The notes: generated from the letters alone by a model not told the origin. 10,179 nt of DNA from Janibacter sp. GXQ6167 (GCF_041365945.1 NZ_JBGFSK010000017.1:2555-12733); one strand, 5' to 3'. Counted from the first letter of the stretch, positions 2,366-9,919 are shown. Numbers and translations are program-made.

Positions 2366-3061
2366 ATGGCCATCAACTATGAGCGCAACAAGAAGTACTT
2401 CAAGCAGTCCAGCCCCAAGGCCGGCATCATCCTGATCGTGATCGGCCTGGTGCTGACGCTCGCCCTCCCCGAGGCGGGCAAGCTCGTCGGCATCCTGGGC
2501 ATCCTGGGTGGCGCGGCGCTGATCTACTTCCAGTTCGCGGGCAAGCCGAGCGACGCGGACATCGACTCGGACGCTGCTGCCGCCATCGCGGACGTGAAGA
2601 AGCGCGCGCTGGGCAAGCTCGGTCTGGACGAGGACGAGGTCAAGCTCATCGACCCGGTGATCGTTCACGGCTACTACTACAAGAACATCGCCTCGGGCGT
2701 GCAGGTCAAGCTCGGCAAGGACCGCGTCTTCCGTTCCTCGAACTACGAGGGCGTCGTGCTGTTCTTCAGCGAGCACCAGCTGCACGCGTTCAAGTTCCAG
2801 TTCTCTCTCGTCTCGCCGCAGGAGAGCCGCGAGCAGACCGACGAGTACTTCTACAAGGACGTCGTGTCGGTGGCGACGCAGTCGGAGACGTTCAAGATCA
2901 ACGACATCAAGGGCAACAGCCAGCAGGTCAACTTCGAGGAGTTCAAGCTCACCACCACGGGTGGCACCTCGATCACTTCGTCGATCCGCGACGAGGGCTC
3001 GGTCAGCCGCGTCATCTCCGGCGCGCGCAGCCTGATTCGCGAGAAGAAGATCGCGTCCTGA
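2366..3061 (+). CDS. Membrane protein: two N-terminal TM helices followed by a soluble ~170-aa domain of about 170 aa (possibly a bacterial PH-like / membrane-flanked domain); function unknown
   Basis: ATG 2366 with GAGAGAGG upstream. Hydrophobic stretches IILIVIGLVLTLAL and LVGILGILGGAALIYF. High GC3. Co-directional, 36 nt after the previous gene. Confidence 0.75.
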   Translation: MAINYERNKKYFKQSSPKAGIILIVIGLVLTLALPEAGKLVGILGILGGAALIYFQFAGKPSDADIDSDAAAAIADVKKRALGKLGLDEDEVKLIDPVIVHGYYYKNIASGVQVKLGKDRVFRSSNYEGVVLFFSEHQLHAFKFQFSLVSPQESREQTDEYFYKDVVSVATQSETFKINDIKGNSQQVNFEEFKLTTTGGTSITSSIRDEGSVSRVISGARSLIREKKIAS

Positions 3062-3115: not shown

Positions 3116-3156
3116 ACCAATTCCGCTGCCCGAGCGTGACGTGAGGAGTGTGCCGT

Positions 3157-5841
3157 ATGCCCGCAGGCGACGCGCCCCTGACGTTCACGCCTCTCGCGCA
3201 GGGTGAAGTAGCCGCTGCTACGGTGGTCGAGGTCGTCCGCATCCCGCACGTCTCCGTGCTGGGCGATGATCCGGCTGCCGAGCTGGTGCAGCAGTCCAAG
3301 CGGGACTTCGTCAGCCTGCTGTTCGAGGCGTACCAGTCGTACCGCGGACAGTACGAGGACGGCCCCGACCGAGCTAGCGACTGCGCTCTGGAACTGCTTT
3401 GGCAAGCACACCCCATTCAGGGCCAGCCGCACGCCGCCGACCTCACGCTATTCATCATCGTTCGCGCGATCGGCGCGAACCGGGACGACGCAGCGGCGGT
3501 TGTCAACGAGCTGCACGCTGTCGTGATCAGCGCGCTCACGCTCGGCGGCTTCGACTACGCAGATCGTCCTGCCTCCGCGATCGGCGCCCAGGCGGCGGAA
3601 CGGTCGGTTGCGCTCGTGAAGGAGGAGTGGATTGAGAACCTCGGCAACCAGATCCTGCCGAGCGCCTTCGCCTTCCACCGTATCCCCACGGGCAGCCGTG
3701 ATCTCTCACGTATCGCCAGCGCCCTAACCGAGGTGCCCGGTGCGTCCCTCTCGGTTCAGCTGATCCCGGCGACACTGGAGCCTGACGAGCGGACTGCTAT
3801 CGAGCAGCTGACGCTGGCGCTCACGACCCTCGCCAACGGTGTGACGGATCAGTCGATCGGTACCGTCAGCTTCACCGCGGCGAAGCGCCTCGCGGAGATG
3901 TACTCGTATCTGGAGGGGCACAAGGACTCGCCCCTGTTTCTGTTTAACGTCGTCGTCTCCGGGCCGAAGCTCGCCGTGCCGGTGATCGCCAACCGGGTGC
4001 TCGGTCACCTCTCCGCCGACGCCGAGGTAGGCGCGCTGGCGGCACGCTTCGTCGACGCCACAGCCCTGGTGCCACGAGGCGATGCGTCCTTCGTCGCTGC
4101 ACCGTGGCAGCTGAACGAGACGCTGCTCGACCAGACTCGTGATCCGTCGCTCTGGGCGGCGGGCCGCAATCCCGGTGAGGCATTCTACCGGCTGCCGTTC
4201 CTGCTGACGGCATTCGAGGCATCGGAGTTGTTCCGTCTGCCGATCGGCAGTGACACGGTCGGCGCCGGGCTGACGGTGAACACCACGACCCGGCACTCGC
4301 GCAACTACTCGGCCGGCGTGATCGGGAGCTCGAGCATCGAAGCCGGGCGACTCGCCGGGGCGGCCGAGGTCTCGATCGGGTTCGGGCATACCGACCTGAC
4401 CAAGCACGCTTTCGTCACGGGGACGCCCGGTTCGGGTAAGACGACGTTCACGGTCGGGCTGCTCGACCGGCTCTGGCACGAGCACGGCATCCCGTATCTG
4501 GTGATCGAGCCGGCGAAGAACGAGTACCGGGCGCTGATCGAGACGACGCCGGATCTGCAGGTGTTCACCCCGGGCAAGGATCATCTGTCTCCGCTTGTGC
4601 TGAACCCGTTCCTGCCGCCAGCGGGCGTGCGGGTGCAGAGCTACAAGTCGACCCTCAAGACGGCGTTCGCAGCCGCGGTCACGATGACGAGCCCCCTGGA
4701 CAAGATCTTCGAGGACGCCCTCTCAGCCACGTACTCGCGGTTTGGCTGGTTCGATGCCGACACAGCCGCCGATGGCCGTGAGGTGTTCTCTATCCGCGAC
4801 TTCCTGGCCGTTTTCCAGGAGACCTTCGTCCGCATCGGCTACACCGGAGACGCGGCCAACATCGGACGAGCAGGCCAGGTGCGCCTGCAGAGTCTGGTTG
4901 GCCTGTTCGACACCTACCCTTCGATCCCTGTCGAGGATCTGCTGTCGAAACCCACGGTAATCGAGCTGGCAGGGATCGAGAACAGCGACGACAAGGCCCT
5001 CTACATCGCGCTCATCCTGCTGCAGGTCCTCGCCTACGTGAACGCCAACGTCGCCGGCGACGGGAAACTCAAGCACGTCCTCCTGCTCGAAGAAGCCCAC
5101 GTCTTGCTCGACGCCGACGACGCCAGCGGACCGGGCGAAGCGGACCCCGCCGCGATTGCGAAGAAGCTGCTCAAACGCATGTTGGCCGAGATCCGCTCCT
5201 ACGGCGTCGGCATCATCGTGGCCGATCAGTCGCCACGCAAGGTCGGCTCGGACGTGGTGGCGCTCACGAACATCAAGCTCGGGTTCCGGCTGGTCGAGGC
5301 CGCAGACAAGGAGATCCTGGCCGAGAGCACCAACATGAGCGACGCGCAGCGCGAGCGGCTGGCGCGGCTCCGGCCGGGCGAGGCACTCCTGTTCTACGAC
5401 CGCCTCGAAGACCCCGAGGAGATCGCCACAGCCGACTGGCGCGCCCAGCGCGGCATCCCGACGTTCGTGTCCGATGAGGAGATCGCCCGAAAGGTCACTT
5501 ACTGGCAGCGGCACCCGGAACTGCTCATGCCATACCCGGAGAGCGCCTACATCGGGGGCTGGGACGCCTCGGTTGCCGGTGCGGGCAAGGAGATCGCCCG
5601 GCGCCTCTTCGCCGCGCACGTCCCGGCCGGCGATGTCGGCGTCAAGAGATTCGGCAGCATCTACCGGCAGCTCGATGCGTTCATCGCCGCCGAACTTCCC
5701 GCGTCGATCCCGAACACGCCGGCCCTGCGGCGAGCGGTCAAGGTCAACTTCCTGCGGCTGGTCAAGTACGAGTCGCAGATCCCACTGTCGGACGCCACGA
5801 TCCACAAGACCCTCGAAGCCGAGAGGAGCCGCACAGCATGA
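3157..5841 (+). CDS. FtsK/HerA-superfamily (DUF87 / HerA-like) P-loop ATPase of about 894 aa, with a large (~420 aa) N-terminal region of unknown function
   Basis: Walker A HAFVTGTPGSGKTTF (about aa 425). DEAH-like Walker B VLLLEEAHVLL. The blocks LVIEPAKNEY and GIIVADQSP also fit HerA/VirB4-type ATPases. GAGGAG at 3143-3148 lies 8 nt upstream of ATG 3157 (the ORF track began at GTG 3148). The stop overlaps the next start (ATGA). Confidence 0.85.
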   Translation: MPAGDAPLTFTPLAQGEVAAATVVEVVRIPHVSVLGDDPAAELVQQSKRDFVSLLFEAYQSYRGQYEDGPDRASDCALELLWQAHPIQGQPHAADLTLFIIVRAIGANRDDAAAVVNELHAVVISALTLGGFDYADRPASAIGAQAAERSVALVKEEWIENLGNQILPSAFAFHRIPTGSRDLSRIASALTEVPGASLSVQLIPATLEPDERTAIEQLTLALTTLANGVTDQSIGTVSFTAAKRLAEMYSYLEGHKDSPLFLFNVVVSGPKLAVPVIANRVLGHLSADAEVGALAARFVDATALVPRGDASFVAAPWQLNETLLDQTRDPSLWAAGRNPGEAFYRLPFLLTAFEASELFRLPIGSDTVGAGLTVNTTTRHSRNYSAGVIGSSSIEAGRLAGAAEVSIGFGHTDLTKHAFVTGTPGSGKTTFTVGLLDRLWHEHGIPYLVIEPAKNEYRALIETTPDLQVFTPGKDHLSPLVLNPFLPPAGVRVQSYKSTLKTAFAAAVTMTSPLDKIFEDALSATYSRFGWFDADTAADGREVFSIRDFLAVFQETFVRIGYTGDAANIGRAGQVRLQSLVGLFDTYPSIPVEDLLSKPTVIELAGIENSDDKALYIALILLQVLAYVNANVAGDGKLKHVLLLEEAHVLLDADDASGPGEADPAAIAKKLLKRMLAEIRSYGVGIIVADQSPRKVGSDVVALTNIKLGFRLVEAADKEILAESTNMSDAQRERLARLRPGEALLFYDRLEDPEEIATADWRAQRGIPTFVSDEEIARKVTYWQRHPELLMPYPESAYIGGWDASVAGAGKEIARRLFAAHVPAGDVGVKRFGSIYRQLDAFIAAELPASIPNTPALRRAVKVNFLRLVKYESQIPLSDATIHKTLEAERSRTA

Positions 5842-7019
5842 GCGACTACGGCACCGACATTGCAGACGCCCCCGTCGACACCGGCGCGGACGTCAGCGTG
5901 CCCGATACGACCGACTACGCCGACGAGCCGGTCGACCTGGCCGAGACCCCGCCCGAGTCGGAGGCGCCCGAGGCCGAGGAGGCGCCGCCCGCCGAAGACC
6001 TCTCGGAGCCCGCAGCAGATGAACTGAGCGGCACGGCGGAGACGCCGGCGGATGCGGAGGCACCCGTCGACCTGGGCGCGGCCCCGGAAACGGCCGACGC
6101 CGCCCCGGAACAGCCCCAGGACTGGCAGGAGGGCGAGGTCGTCGATCTCGGCGACGACGCTGCCCCCGACGCCCCGCAGGAGGACGAGACCGCCGAGGCG
6201 GACGATCCTGCCGGGCGCGACCTGGGTGATCCCGACCTGGCCGACAGCCCGGAGGCCGAGGCTCCCACGGATAGCGCCGGTGAGGATCTGACGACACCGA
6301 CGGACGACGAACCGGGCGCCGGTGATGCGCCGACTGACGCCGACGAGCAGGTACCTGAGGCGGCGGAGATTGAGCCCGAGGCCGCAAACGACGTGACGGA
6401 TGCCGAACCCGAGCCCAGGGTCGATGAGTTGACAGAGGCGGCCCGGGATGAGGCCCGCCCCGCCGACGAGCTGCGCGCCGAGTACTACGCCGACGTGGCT
6501 GATGTGCTGGCCGATGACACACCATCCGACGCCGAGCCGGTCGAGACGCAGGACACTCCCGGAGCAGACGCTGCCGAGGCGCCGGAGTCGAGCGATCACG
6601 CGGACGCCGCCAATGACCGCAGCAACTCCCCAGAGAACGAGGCACTGACCTCGGCGCTAGCCGAGAAAGGCCTGTCGCTGGAGCCGGTCGATCGCTTCGA
6701 CTACAGCGACAACCCGGTTCTCGGCTACCGCGAGTCCGCCCCGCCCGAAGACGTCGCGTACGCCGTCAACGCCTGGAACGACGAGATCGCGCCCGGCATC
6801 GCGGCCGGCGCGACCCGTGAGGACTTCGCCGCCTACGACCAGGAGCACGGCCTCGAAGGGCAGCGGCAGCTGGCCGGCGTCTACGACTACATGCTCGGCG
6901 GCGACGCGATCAAGAGCGGCGGAGAGCGCGAGGACGGATCGCTCGACGTCACCGGCGGCAGGCACCGCCTGGAACAGGCGCGTCTGAACGGCGTCCAGTA
7001 CCTGCCCGTGAGGAAGTAG
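5838..7019 (+). CDS. Highly acidic protein: about 270 aa of D/E/P/A-rich low-complexity (disordered) sequence followed by a ~120-aa globular C-terminal domain ending in a ParB/sulfiredoxin-like GGRHRLEQARLNG motif
   Basis: ATG 5838 overlaps the TGA of the ATPase gene (translational coupling). GAGAGGAG lies 9 nt upstream. The C-terminus reads DVTGGRHRLEQARLNGVQYLPV, compared with the ParB/Srx consensus h-x-G-[EG]-[RH]-R-x-x-A-x-x-x-G-x-x-x-IP. High GC3 throughout. Confidence 0.75.
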   Translation: MSDYGTDIADAPVDTGADVSVPDTTDYADEPVDLAETPPESEAPEAEEAPPAEDLSEPAADELSGTAETPADAEAPVDLGAAPETADAAPEQPQDWQEGEVVDLGDDAAPDAPQEDETAEADDPAGRDLGDPDLADSPEAEAPTDSAGEDLTTPTDDEPGAGDAPTDADEQVPEAAEIEPEAANDVTDAEPEPRVDELTEAARDEARPADELRAEYYADVADVLADDTPSDAEPVETQDTPGADAAEAPESSDHADAANDRSNSPENEALTSALAEKGLSLEPVDRFDYSDNPVLGYRESAPPEDVAYAVNAWNDEIAPGIAAGATREDFAAYDQEHGLEGQRQLAGVYDYMLGGDAIKSGGEREDGSLDVTGGRHRLEQARLNGVQYLPVRK

Positions 7020-7056: not shown

Positions 7057-8256
7057 ATGAAGATCTACGACGTCATCAAGAACGAGACCGGCCTTCTCAA
7101 CGACGGCCTGGGCTCGAAGGCCGTGCTGGCGTGGAAGTTCACCGGTGAGGACTTCAACGACAACACGCAGCTGATCGTCTCCGAATCGGAGGAGGCGATC
7201 TTCATCCGCGACGGCATCGCCGTGGCGACCTTCGGCGGCGGCCGCTACACGCTCAACAGCAACAACCACCCCTTCATCGGCAGGCTGAGGAACCTGCTCT
7301 CCGGCGGGGTGAGCGCGTTCAGCTCGCGGGTGTACTTCGTCAACATCGATCACAAGTTGGAACTGCTGTGGGGCACCGACAGCCCGATCCAGCTCCGCGA
7401 CCCGGTCTGGAGCCTGCAGACCAGCGTGCAGGCGCGCGGCTCGTACTCGATCCAGGTGACGGACTCCAAGAAGTTCCTGATCAAACTGCTCGGCACCAAC
7501 ATCCAGGTTTTCGACGAGCAGCAGCTCGCCGGCTACTTCCGCAGCGCCTTCTCGCAGCACATCCGCGGACAGATCGCCCGCTACATCCGCGACTCCGGCC
7601 AGGAGATCCTGGAGATCACCTCGGACATCGAGCTGCTGGCCGAGCAGCTGCACCCGAGGCTCGCACCGCTGCTGGATGAGTACGGCGTGAAGCTCGTCAA
7701 CTTCTACATCGCCGCGATCGACATCCCCACCGACGACCCGAACCGCCAAGTGCTGGAGAACTCGATCGCACAGAAGCAGGCCAAGCTGCAGAGCGCGCAG
7801 GGCGATAAGGCCGTCATGGGGCTGCTCGGGGAAGACTGGGCCAGGCAGCAGTCGGCCACCATCCTCACCGAGCTCGCCAAGAACCCCGGCGCGGGTGGCG
7901 TGGCTTCCGCGGGTGCCGCAGCAGGCGTTGGCCTGGCTGCGGGCAGCGTCTTCGGGGAGATGGCGACGCAGATGTTCACGCGCCCCGTCCAGCCCGCAGG
8001 CGACCCGATGGCTGGCAATGTCGGGCGCAACCGCACATCGCGCTTCTCGCCCGCAGAGCCTGCCGCGCCGGCCGCCGCCGAGACGTGTCCGGGCTGCGGC
8101 GCGAGCGTGGCGGCGGGAGCGAAGTTCTGCCCGGAGTGCGGCAACCGTCTCGCACCTCAGCAGGTGCCCTGCTCGGGTTGCGGAACCGCAATCGCGAGCA
8201 CGGCCAAGTTCTGCCCCGAATGCGGAACGCCGAACAACCAGGGAGCATCCTCATGA
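7057..8256 (+). CDS. SPFH/band-7 (stomatin-prohibitin-like) domain protein with two C-terminal zinc ribbons (COG4260-like membrane-protease-subunit family)
   Basis: N-terminus MKIYDVIKNETGLLNDGLGSKAVLAWKF...SESEEAIFIRDGIAV. The C-terminus carries CPGCGASVAAGAKFCPECG and CSGCGTAIASTAKFCPECG. The stop overlaps the next start. Confidence 0.8.
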   Translation: MKIYDVIKNETGLLNDGLGSKAVLAWKFTGEDFNDNTQLIVSESEEAIFIRDGIAVATFGGGRYTLNSNNHPFIGRLRNLLSGGVSAFSSRVYFVNIDHKLELLWGTDSPIQLRDPVWSLQTSVQARGSYSIQVTDSKKFLIKLLGTNIQVFDEQQLAGYFRSAFSQHIRGQIARYIRDSGQEILEITSDIELLAEQLHPRLAPLLDEYGVKLVNFYIAAIDIPTDDPNRQVLENSIAQKQAKLQSAQGDKAVMGLLGEDWARQQSATILTELAKNPGAGGVASAGAAAGVGLAAGSVFGEMATQMFTRPVQPAGDPMAGNVGRNRTSRFSPAEPAAPAAAETCPGCGASVAAGAKFCPECGNRLAPQQVPCSGCGTAIASTAKFCPECGTPNNQGASS

Positions 8257-8930
8257 CCCGCACGATCCTGCGCGCCATCCTGTGGCTCGTCCCCATCGCC
8301 GTCTACGTCGCCATCTTCCTCATCCTCGAGGCCCCGCAGGGCGCGACGTTCTGGACGTCCGCACTGCTGCTGGCGTTCGCCTACGTCATGCTCGCCGTCA
8401 GTTTCGTCGCCGTGCCGCGCAGTCGGATAGCCGCGATCCTGGCCATGCCCCTGATCCTGGTGGCGAGCATCTACTTCACTGCCGAGCTCATCGCGGCCAG
8501 CATCTTCATCTACGTGCAGGACATTCCATACCCGTGGGTGATCATCACGCAGCTGATCCTGGCCGCGATCTTCCTCGTCGTGTTCCTCACCACCTTGTTG
8601 TCCAACGAGGCCATCGCCGCCCAGATCGAGACCCAGCACGCCGACGTCCTGGTGATCAAGAGCGCCGTCACCCGCATCACGGCCCTGGGACGTGTCGCCC
8701 ACGATCCGCGCCTGGCGAAGTCGCTGGACGGGCTGGCCGAGGAGTTCCGCTACAGCCCGACGATGCGCTCGAACCAGGTGCGCGAAGTCGACGCGCAGAT
8801 CGCCGTGCAGCTCGAGCGACTGGAGAGCCTCGTCCACATCCAAGCTTCGCAAGAGGATACCGTCGGCCAGATCGCGGCGATATCCGGGGCGCTCGCTTCA
8901 CGCAACGAGGCGATCAAGCTCCGCCAGTAG
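8253..8930 (+). CDS. Integral membrane protein (about 4 TM helices) with a C-terminal amphipathic / coiled-coil cytoplasmic domain; translationally coupled partner of the SPFH protein
   Basis: ATG 8253 overlaps the TGA of the SPFH gene (tcATGA). Hydrophobic segments LWLVPIAVYVAIFLIL, LLLAFAYVMLAVSFVAV, AILAMPLILVASIYF and ITQLILAAIFLVVFLTTLL, followed by a helical tail (QIAVQLERLESLVHIQASQEDTVGQIAAISGALASRNEAIKLRQ). Confidence 0.75.
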   Translation: MTRTILRAILWLVPIAVYVAIFLILEAPQGATFWTSALLLAFAYVMLAVSFVAVPRSRIAAILAMPLILVASIYFTAELIAASIFIYVQDIPYPWVIITQLILAAIFLVVFLTTLLSNEAIAAQIETQHADVLVIKSAVTRITALGRVAHDPRLAKSLDGLAEEFRYSPTMRSNQVREVDAQIAVQLERLESLVHIQASQEDTVGQIAAISGALASRNEAIKLRQ

Positions 8931-9376: not shown

Positions 9377-9919
9377 TCAAGGCCGGGGCGAACTCCCGAG
9401 CAGGGCGTGCAGCTGATGGCTGGCTGGTGAGACGGCGCGAATGCGGGTCTCGTGGAGGGCGGGGTCGTGCGTGCGCAGGTACATCGCCCAGAACGCCGCG
9501 TCGGCATACGTTGTGTGCAGATCTGACTGCGCCCGCCAGCCGCTCGAAGCGGTGCGCCGGTAGCCGACTTCGTAAGGGCCGCCATGCAGGAGTTCCTGCA
9601 CGAGTGATGCCGGGACGTCACCGACCGGGTAGGTGCTGCCGATATCGCCCACGAGGAGCACGTCGCCGTGCAACGCCGGCCGCTGCCTTGAAGTGGTGTC
9701 CCAGAACCAGCGCAGCGACGAGGCGCGCAGGTTCATCGGGAGCCCGTTTCGGCGGTCGTCGGCGTCGAGCCACATCGTGACACCTCGGCTCTCGATGTCG
9801 ATCGGGATCACCAGATCAGCGAGCTGCTGAATGTCTGCGAACCCTGCGACCTCCCGCGTTTCGAGTTGTTGCTCGATCTGCGCCGGGATGAGAACAGCCG
9901 TGACGGTCTCACCATTCAC
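9377..9919 (-). CDS. DUF3846-family protein (a small family common in actinobacterial phages and integrative elements) with a ~80-aa C-terminal extension
   Basis: GTG start at 9919 with GGGTGAG upstream. The N-terminal 100 aa (TAVLIPAQIEQQLETREVAGFADIQQLADLVIPIDIE...GVTMWLDADDRRNGLPMNLRASSLRWFWD...GDVLLVGDIGSTYPVGDVPASLVQELL) fit my recollection of the DUF3846 pattern (VxPADG...VxE...LxxLxxxVGGxIE...xWxNEEGxLxxLPxNxxAT.L). Confidence 0.65.
   Translation of the reverse strand: MNGETVTAVLIPAQIEQQLETREVAGFADIQQLADLVIPIDIESRGVTMWLDADDRRNGLPMNLRASSLRWFWDTTSRQRPALHGDVLLVGDIGSTYPVGDVPASLVQELLHGGPYEVGYRRTASSGWRAQSDLHTTYADAAFWAMYLRTHDPALHETRIRAVSPASHQLHALLGSSPRP

Follow-up and report, generated by a model that had tools for sequence, protein, structure and literature searches.

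A polyacidic protein with a ParB/Srx-like C-terminal domain is a candidate polymorphic-toxin-type effector beside a HerA-type ATPase

Tox-ParB is an established class of polymorphic-toxin domain, with a DGHHR motif and with actinobacterial members linked to type VII secretion (T7SS) and WXG proteins (PMC3482391; Zhang et al. 2012). Nuclease or phosphotransfer activity has been proposed for it, and FtsK/HerA-family ATPases drive export by both type IV secretion systems and the T7SS (PMC3482391). In another group of systems (Sir2-HerA, DUF4297-HerA, and HerA-NurA), a HerA-family ATPase adjoins, and probably assembles with, an exchangeable enzymatic effector. Here we analyze a protein of 393 amino acids (aa) that is encoded at 5838-7019 (+ strand) in a stretch of 10,179 nucleotides (nt) from Janibacter sp. 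GXQ6167 (GCF_041365945.1, NZ_JBGFSK010000017.1:2555-12733). We call this whole stretch the window and count positions from its first letter; related loci are identified by L numbers. The protein has a polyacidic leader and a C-terminal domain that resembles ParB and sulfiredoxin (Srx), and a HerA-type ATPase is encoded directly upstream. With slightly better than even confidence, we propose that it is a polymorphic-toxin-type effector. The leader and its N-terminal motif would be the handle for the HerA-family motor, the ParB/Srx end would act on nucleotides or nucleic acids, and the motor, together with SPFH and transmembrane (TM) proteins, would deliver the effector to or across a membrane.

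Like Tox-ParB proteins, the window protein has a C-terminal ParB-fold domain behind an N-terminal trafficking module and a D/G-G-x-H-R motif (DGHHR in Tox-ParB, GGRHR in the window, and DGRHR at L035). It also comes from the Actinobacteria and is associated with an FtsK/HerA-superfamily ATPase (Tox-ParB is listed with the T7SS and WXG proteins). However, Pfam's ParB_N misses the window protein, and its leader is polyacidic instead of being of the WXG/LXG, RHS, filamentous haemagglutinin, or MafB type. Instead of a described secretion system, it is accompanied by a HerA-type ATPase together with SPFH and TM proteins, and there is no adjacent Imm20, Imm27, Imm-SuFu, or other immunity gene.

The comparison with the T7SS of the LXG/WXG type (EssC/EccC) is similar. 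Both place an FtsK/HerA-superfamily motor beside toxins that have a conserved N-terminus, variable C-termini, and small immunity genes, and some FtsK/SpoIIIE clusters that contain two ~90-aa helical-hairpin proteins also harbour members of the ParB-like family. In contrast to the T7SS, the window ATPase is HerA-like; it has a single ATPase domain, lacks a TM segment, and shows no sequence relationship to the FtsK proteins of those clusters. Its partner's leader is polyacidic and predicted to be unfolded, rather than being a helical hairpin of the WXG100/LXG type, and there are no EsxA-like, EssA/B, or EccB/D/E genes. The HerA-effector systems are also different: they have two genes, they are cytoplasmic, and their HerA is ~500-700 aa, while the window cassette has six genes, including membrane proteins and an SPFH protein, and its effectors combine a polyacidic leader with domains of the polymorphic-toxin type.

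The fold, the ParB-fold toxin domains, and polymorphic toxins are thus already known. The ParB/Srx family that we describe, the polyacidic leader with its N-terminal motif, and the accompanying HerA-ATPase/SPFH cassette are apparently undescribed, going by PADLOC and the literature. We found no description of a DUF87/HerA-SPFH-acidic toxin system in the full-text collection that was searched, which does not include most subscription journals, so an earlier account is possible. The chance that this cassette represents a new system of delivery or defence is substantial.

Acidic proteins in a variable slot after the ATPase

The gene that follows the ATPase is always acidic. Among 69 loci with at least 700 nt of sequence downstream of the ATPase, an automatic screen found a strongly acidic open reading frame (ORF) starting between -40 and +45 nt from the ATPase stop in 61. 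The other eight have such an ORF as well, hidden from the screen by the end of a contig, by a start codon of another kind, or by a small ORF in between, so the total is 69 of 69. (At L056, the acidic ORF starts at +263 nt from the ATPase stop.) The 61 screened ORFs encode proteins of 144-987 aa in which aspartate and glutamate (D+E) make up a fraction of 0.22-0.41 and lysine and arginine (K+R) a fraction of 0.02-0.13; in the N-terminal half, D+E reaches up to 0.57.

The other ends of these proteins are polymorphic. Clustering 52 slot proteins by their last 180 aa gives 26 groups without detectable mutual similarity. When we compared 47 C-termini to Pfam, we found TNT (1e-27), the GH-E HNH nuclease (2.5e-24), Gln_amidase, which is a papain-fold deamidase (1e-14), and ADPrib_exo_Tox (1.9e-12), as well as C39-like peptidases and putative metallopeptidases. 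A small non-acidic ORF lies within 60 nt 3' of 25 of the 52 genes and, in all but one case, encodes 66-171 aa. The BLAST cluster of the small ORF tracks the C-terminal cluster of the slot protein, as in toxin-immunity pairs.

Across homologous loci, then, a shared N-terminal region is joined to unrelated C-termini, which is the pattern of polymorphic toxins, and in relatives the ends belong to recognised toxin families; the window protein's own link to Tox-ParB is by fold and motif only. ParB-like ends are also found on acidic leaders of differing length in Modestobacter lapidis (L010) and at the actinobacterial loci L096 and L097. The preliminary description of this DNA treated the ParB module as the defining part of the protein and the acidic tail as an oddity. 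The survey reverses this: the leader and the ATPase/SPFH cassette are conserved, and the ParB-like domain is interchangeable cargo. The window protein is the form that this widespread family of slot proteins takes in Actinobacteria.

In the window, the 393-aa ORF is present as first described. The ATPase ORF (897 aa; 3148-5841, + strand) ends in a TGA at 5839-5841, and the effector's ATG at 5838-5840 runs into it, so that the two ORFs share 4 nt, ATGA (5838-5841). The Shine-Dalgarno-like run GAGAGGAG (5821-5828) has its last base 9 nt 5' of the effector ATG; together these form a putative translational-coupling junction (5821-5841, + strand). A genome scan based on the ATPase identified two syntenic orthologues, L001 (Microbacterium sp. 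HA-8) and L002 (an uncultured Actinomycetota metagenome-assembled genome). Both keep the 4-nt overlap, as ATGA in L001 and TTGA in L002, and both keep the upstream GAGAGGAG. The called gene coordinates in L096 give a 4-nt overlap too. With the overlap in three actinobacterial orthologues, and with an acidic gene at every one of the 69 loci, the partnership with the ATPase that had been suggested from the overlap holds up.

The acidic region is translated in this frame. The GC content of the effector ORF at the three codon positions is 0.80/0.49/0.85, which is high at the third position and low at the second, like the neighbouring genes. For the acidic part, the ratio of nonsynonymous to synonymous substitution rates (dN/dS) is 0.23 against L001 and 0.18 against L002, and the differences are mostly at third positions. 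In an independent nucleotide alignment with these two loci, all gaps in the acidic region are multiples of three. Together, these observations support coding in this frame, and on the dN/dS and gap data we rejected a non-coding or wrong-frame artefact; the original coding assignment is upheld. An exact-sequence lookup found no database record identical to the protein, and a hydropathy scan found no signal peptide or TM segment in it.

The leader (aa 1-258; 5838-6611, + strand) is polyacidic, rich in proline, and predicted to be disordered. It contains 33.3% D+E and 1.9% K+R, has a net charge of -81, and has 10% proline and few hydrophobic residues. D, E, P, A, and T account for 74% of the residues; the long acidic region is thus real, but "almost purely" D/E/P/A/T, as it was first characterized, is a mild overstatement. 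The isoelectric point, first estimated at near 3, is computed as 3.25 over the full length of the protein and as 2.77 over its acidic part. Because the other five cassette proteins have just 8-12% D+E, this acidity is far above the local background. The charge-hydropathy value of the acidic part is 0.401, against a boundary of 0.526, which is well inside the disordered zone. Tandem Repeats Finder reported no substantial repeat array in the acidic region of the window, so it is not a simple repeat expansion.

A highly acidic protein near mobile elements could instead be a DNA mimic of the Ocr or ArdA kind, which would protect a mobile element from restriction or other defences. The net charge of -81 over 258 aa and the mobile-element neighbourhood are consistent with this idea, which was raised in the preliminary description. 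Nevertheless, we consider it very improbable. There is no match to a Pfam or PHROG-type family, and the region is compositionally disordered, with its 10% proline and scarce hydrophobic residues. Its length shifts by in-frame duplications, while folded mimics such as Ocr and ArdA have a fixed charge pattern. In addition, as the constant part of its family, it always comes with the ATPase/SPFH cassette and with C-termini of the toxin type.

The leader begins with a motif, MSDYGTDIADAPVDT (5838-5882, + strand), that fits the family pattern M-x-[DE]-[DE]-[FYM]-x4-D-x3-D. The part of the window protein that we matched to this pattern is MSDYGTDIADAPVD, with D3, Y4, D10, and D14. Among 52 distinct slot N-termini, position 3 is acidic in 79% and position 5 is aromatic or hydrophobic in 71%; position 10 is D in 58% (acidic in 67%), and position 14 is D in 52% (acidic in 63%). 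The motif is a candidate recognition signal.

Leader length differs among the orthologues, and L002 has in-frame duplications of 297 nt and 87 nt. The duplicated units extend its acidic leader at 9850-10475 (297-nt unit, copies 93% identical) and 10582-10755 (87-nt unit, 80%). The 297-nt duplication includes a DWQE..DLG motif, which in the window is the short sequence DWQEGEVVDLG (aa 95-105; 6120-6152). The general form, aromatic..EG(x)VDL[GN], is conserved in L001 and L016, and variants occur in L010 and, in two copies, in L002. Firmicutes-like proteins of ~220 aa have the form ..SEGVDLN.. (10 of 60 slot proteins). This may be a docking motif.

A few other slot proteins have unusual arrangements. 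L011 (10714-13814) and L012 (6227-9558) have identical ATPases and the same 952-aa acidic TNT/Gln_amidase protein with an 81-aa partner. In L012, the gene caller split this gene inside the acidic repeats (due to a frameshift or an assembly error), which implies that annotation pipelines may often break acidic slot genes. At L035 (7455-9479), which is from a low-GC metagenome, the acidic slot protein (674 aa) is Firmicutes-like and carries a ParB-like domain in its interior, at aa 300-398 (with DGRHR; E = 9e-6 against the family profile). This is followed by an HExxH C-terminal domain and then by a 69-aa downstream ORF; L066 has the same C-terminal domain with a similar 70-aa ORF.

Another HExxH protein recurs in many ATPase/SPFH loci, both low- and high-GC. 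It is acidic, has 179-251 aa (DUF6782/SprT-like), and is paired with a partner of ~98 aa. We found this pair in L013 (5052-6022), L019 (8654-9624), L026, L031, L033, L042, and L095 (9746-10572, - strand), and it is often followed by a second acidic slot protein. The two proteins could be a toxin-immunity pair, or the HExxH protein could be a peptidase that processes the acidic leaders.

A divergent ParB/Srx-like domain

The C-terminal domain (aa 259-393, which with the stop codon spans 6612-7019, + strand) adopts the ParB/Srx fold, as judged by profile search and fold comparison. It includes a GGRHR box (G373-R377; 6954-6968, + strand), which is a predicted phosphate-binding or active-site motif at a strand-to-helix junction. 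The protein stops 16 residues past R377, and its C-terminal string is ...DVTGGRHRLEQARLNGVQYLPVRK.

Standard searches give little for this protein. The effector has no match in Pfam, NCBIfam, or PADLOC, and Pfam identifies no helix-turn-helix (HTH) or other domain in it. A word-indexed homologue search with the C-terminal domain alone found nothing, phmmer with the domain against the PDB returned noise only, and a single-sequence AF2 model of the protein was uninformative (pLDDT 54). We used exhaustive phmmer against 1.8 billion cluster representatives and found 241 matches with E<=1e-3, including 91 with E<=1e-10. The domain is C-terminal in nearly all of the 150 family matches that were listed. 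Of 57 family members, one matched Pfam's ParB_N (6e-4). Judging by their sequences, these proteins are a divergent ParB-like family that lacks a Pfam or NCBIfam model of its own.

D334, G374, H376, and R377 are invariant in a 49-sequence alignment of the domain. In a larger alignment (141 sequences), D334 and G374 never vary, and conservation is 90% or higher at H376 and R377. This level of conservation is also reached in the domain alignments by D305, P319, G324, G367, A381, G385, and P390.

A profile of the full-length family matched mostly apolipoproteins and coiled coils in the PDB, which is due to the helical N-termini of other members. To avoid these matches, we repeated the profile search with a domain-only alignment. 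Across all PDB sequences, this gave six matches, all from the ParB/Srx superfamily: SbnI (E = 0.015), Caulobacter ParB (0.099), Noc (0.12-0.15), and two more SbnI (0.18). These E values are marginal when taken alone. In the alignments, GRHRieaA (G-R-H-R-x-x-x-A) corresponds to GERRWRAA of ParB and Noc and to GVHRYTSL of SbnI.

The fold comparison points to the same superfamily. The relatives, with the figures listed for them, are plant sulfiredoxin (6.9), KorB (6.8), PadC (6.7), SbnI (6.6), human sulfiredoxin (6.4), the N-terminal domain of pNOB8 ParB (5.7), and Atu1540 (4.8). The model has the alpha/beta core of ParB-N, sulfiredoxin, SerK, SbnI, and KorB, and its putative phosphate-binding box lies at the strand-to-helix junction and is followed by the conserved Ala and Gly. 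With ParB, Noc, KorB, sulfiredoxin, SerK, and SbnI, the domain shares the core fold and the position of a Gly-x-(H/R)-R box, at 9-23% identity. It differs from them in being a minimal core of ~120 aa with a three-helix insert (domain aa 45-95), which the model places between the first strand (..DYSDNP..) and the core. It also lacks the HTH, the dimerisation domains, and the box III region, and its genomic context is unrelated to partition or redox repair. The resemblance to ParB and Srx that was noted at the outset from the arginine box is therefore supported by a shared fold as well as by the conservation of the GGRHR residues.

The suggestion that this is a CTP switch fared less well. In ParB, the CTP pocket is completed by the helices after the GxxR box (box III), which also mediate dimerisation of the N-domain. 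In the model, the last element of the window domain is the strand after the GxHR helix (domain residues 130-134), with no helices beyond it to form a CTP pocket. Given this secondary structure and what is known about ParB, a CTP switch is unlikely. We also considered a ParB partition or CTP-clamp protein and rejected this candidate, as there is neither a box III region nor an HTH.

A broader form of this idea is that the protein is a non-toxic regulatory partner, in which the ParB/Srx domain, as a CTP- or ATP-binding switch, regulates the ATPase or anchors it and the acidic region serves as a mere flexible tether. ParB/Srx folds with a GxHR-like box do bind nucleotide phosphate in ParB, Noc, KorB, Srx, SerK, and SbnI; translational coupling suggests co-assembly; and the actinobacterial loci lack an immunity gene. 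But in homologous cassettes, unrelated toxin domains (TNT, nuclease, ADP-ribosyltransferase, or deamidase) fill the same position, so regulating the ATPase is not a conserved role of the C-terminal domain. The apparent absence of the helices that ParB uses for its CTP pocket and for N-domain dimerisation also argues against regulation, as does the fusion of the ParB-like domain to unrelated N-terminal modules in FtsK-type clusters. Overall, we think a regulatory role is quite unlikely.

The majority of the 241 family members have 230-300 aa, with an N-terminal part that is helical and not acidic. We placed three of them on contigs, all high-GC: L003 (3064-10720), L005 (1915-11373), and L009 (1-5997). 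The gene order in these three clusters is an FtsK/SpoIIIE ATPase (~890-990 aa), a 170-aa protein with a C-terminal membrane anchor, two ~90-aa helix-GGSAQ-helix proteins, and the ParB-like protein. In two of the three, genes resembling DnaJ, Hsp70, or GrpE lie upstream (DnaJ/TPR, Hsp70, and GrpE in L003; a weakly GrpE-like gene in L009). The first ~88 aa of these ParB-like proteins are paralogous to an 86-aa neighbour and resemble type VII substrates of the WXG100/LXG kind. Pfam's WXG100 scores weakly on the helical proteins and N-domains (E = 0.06-0.9), and a profile search of the PDB with them found generic coiled coils only. These clusters may be a T7SS-like or chaperone-linked system. One warhead is thus found on two N-terminal modules, beside two motors of the FtsK/HerA superfamily, and is therefore portable cargo, like the domains of polymorphic toxins. 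We rejected the possibility that the window ATPase is one of these FtsK/SpoIIIE ATPases, as there is no similarity by BLASTP.

Delivery or defence

The 897-aa protein encoded upstream of the effector is a P-loop ATPase of the HerA/FtsK superfamily (Pfam DUF87, 1.3e-6). Walker A (GTPGSGKTT, aa 425-433) and Walker B (LLLEEAH, aa 645-651) are intact, and the Walker residues are invariant in our alignment of homologues (A5). HerA models of NCBIfam and PADLOC match it in part, and the nearest solved relatives are HerA structures 4d2i (5e-8) and 8wiv. Together with the conserved synteny with the acidic gene, these results support the earlier claim that the protein is paired with a HerA-type motor. 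There are more than 1,596 homologues of the ATPase (~890 aa), which are ~48-50% identical across phyla; by their source assignments, they include Modestobacter, Oscillospiraceae, Spirochaetia, Planctomycetaceae, and Fibromonadaceae. Two parts of the ATPase, aa 1-396 (3148-4340) and aa 765-897 (5440-5838), match no family, but their conservation across phyla is high and A5 has many invariant residues in them. These regions (~400 and ~135 aa) are candidates for binding the effector or membrane partners.

In the mechanism that we favour, the effector would be the cargo subunit of a six-gene, membrane-associated module. A hexameric motor of the HerA/FtsK type would recognise the N-terminal motif and engage the polyanionic, unfolded leader much as its relatives engage DNA. 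The effector would then be delivered to or through a membrane complex that is organised by the SPFH and TM proteins. The C-terminal warhead would be exchangeable; here it is a minimal ParB/Srx-fold domain with a G-x-H-R box. Its most likely targets are nucleotides or nucleic acids, on which it would work either as a metal-dependent nuclease or as an NTP-dependent phosphotransferase, as proposed for Tox-ParB domains. We infer the toxicity of the ParB-like domain, the physical interaction of the ATPase with the leader, and export. A more general version is that a ring ATPase of the HerA/FtsK family, whose members are otherwise known as DNA pumps, threads proteins by their DNA-like polyacidic, unfolded leaders and exports polymorphic toxins, this one among them, via an SPFH-organised membrane complex. 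Such an undescribed pathway of protein delivery would be widespread among bacteria of gut, rumen, termite, and soil. We offer this version tentatively and consider it rather doubtful as it stands.

Several observations weigh against an exported toxin. The cassette has no recognisable channel-forming or cell-wall-crossing component. Band_7_1 SPFH proteins such as YdjI/SamI of B. subtilis are reported to be cytosolic and to be recruited to the membrane (PMC8581546; bioRxiv 10.64898/2026.02.06.704340). All of the recognised warheads act in the cytoplasm, and an intracellular suicide effector fits this equally well. Ten putative immunity ORFs had no Pfam family, and the adjacent small ORFs of 25 of 52 relatives belong to no known Imm family. 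In the window and in L001, L002, L010, and L096, no immunity-like ORF follows the ParB-like effector: just 37 nt separate its stop (7019) from the start of the SPFH gene (7057), and the arrangement at the other four loci is the same. Finally, for the window protein there was no match to Pfam's ParB_N (PF02195) at E<=1.

These points lead to the main alternative, which is intracellular abortive infection or another defence. The HerA-family ATPase would sense an invader, DNA, or membrane stress and release or activate the acidic effector within the producing cell; the leader would be an inhibitory pro-region or an assembly tether, and the small downstream ORFs would be antitoxins. The closest solved relatives of the ATPase are HerA proteins, PADLOC has partial matches to HerA and mad8, and the recognised warheads target NAD+, DNA, and proteins, all in the cytoplasm. 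The cassette lies in mobile or variable regions near integrases, relaxases, and insertion sequences. The lack of an obvious secretion channel and the reported cytosolic nature of SPFH proteins such as YdjI/SamI also favour this reading, and the absence of an immunity gene beside the window-type effector is acceptable if the effector is never received from neighbours.

On the other hand, the TNT, ADPrib_exo_Tox, GH-E, and Gln_amidase families are characteristic of polymorphic toxins that are exported (PMC3482391). The PADLOC matches (HerA and mad8, E = 9e-17 to 1e-6) cover just part of the ATPase domain, and neither the acidic protein nor any of the other four genes (SPFH, TPR, and the two TM proteins) has a PADLOC match, which sets the locus apart from known HerA defence systems. 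There are six conserved genes, including two for membrane proteins, versus two genes in the HerA systems, and a conserved N-terminal motif on an unfolded leader resembles a trafficking signal. We therefore see intracellular defence as possible but somewhat unlikely, and the same holds for a leader that acts as a pro-region or tether with antitoxins downstream.

If the proposal of a delivered effector is correct, then a divergent and unannotated ParB/Srx-fold family (241 cluster representatives) joins the repertoire of toxins and effectors, and polymorphic toxins have a new kind of leader, whose sequence would serve as a simple rule by which to search metagenomes for new toxin and immunity genes. 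The HerA-ATPase/SPFH cassette would be a new route of toxin delivery or else a new defence system. It is also broad, with more than 1,500 ATPase homologues from Actinobacteria, Firmicutes-like gut and rumen organisms, spirochaetes, and planctomycetes. A DNA-pump-type motor that handles a polyanionic protein would be of interest to the fields of secretion, AAA+/RecA-type translocases, and interbacterial competition.

The six-gene cassette and its surroundings

We surveyed the cassette by examining the contigs that encode homologues of the ATPase and by scanning metagenomes with the ATPase alignment (80 loci). The recurring order is a TPR/Zn-ribbon protein, a small TM protein, sometimes YidD, the ATPase, the variable slot (0.1-3.5 kb), an SPFH protein (Band_7_1) that bears zinc ribbons or a SHOCT domain, and a TM protein of 222-256 aa. 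Besides the window, the cassette is found in Modestobacter, Oscillospiraceae, Defluviitaleaceae, and the 80 metagenome loci.

In the window, the first gene encodes a protein with a Zn-ribbon and TPR-like repeats (1661-2329, + strand; DZR/Zn_ribbon and TPR in Pfam). The listed ORF starts at 1523, and the probable start is the ATG at 1661, which gives 222 aa, the same as in L001. A TPR protein is at the equivalent position in L001, L002, L010, L011, L095, and L096. The second gene (2366-3061, + strand) encodes a 231-aa membrane protein with one TM helix predicted by hydropathy scan (aa 19-37). It has no Pfam family, and its C-terminal domain has no assigned family; syntenic counterparts of 213-276 aa are found in L010, L011, L095, and L096.

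The variable slot is bounded on its 3' side by the SPFH gene (7057-8256, + strand). Its product matches Band_7_1 (1.3e-33) and has two C-terminal zinc ribbons (DZR, 2.4e-10). In 53 related loci, a homologue of it lies downstream of the ATPase on the same strand; in L095 it is on the opposite strand. The product of the last gene (8253-8930, + strand) is a membrane protein that has 225 aa, four predicted TM helices, and a C-terminal tail that is helical, as judged from hydropathy and a scan of start codons. A second ATGA start/stop overlap (8253-8256) couples it to the SPFH gene; its true start is the ATG at 8253 and not the listed GTG at 8085. Syntenic counterparts of 222-231 aa are present in L010, L011, L095, and L096.

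By protein type, this part of the cassette is like PspA-YdjGHI (SamGHI) of B. subtilis, which has a Band_7_1 SPFH protein, a zinc-ribbon element, and a small multi-TM protein (PMC8581546; bioRxiv 10.64898/2026.02.06.704340). The window differs in that it lacks PspA, the zinc ribbons are fused to the SPFH protein, and a HerA-type ATPase and an acidic effector are added.

Flanking the cassette are a zinc-finger fragment of an ISL3-type transposase, a piece of an integrase that retains just the N-terminal SAM-like domain and the central domain, and a DUF3846 gene; the flanking features are at 538-960, 1204-1857, and 9377-9919 (all - strand). Because the flanks are wholly different in L001, L002, L010, and L096, the cassette behaves as a mobile unit.

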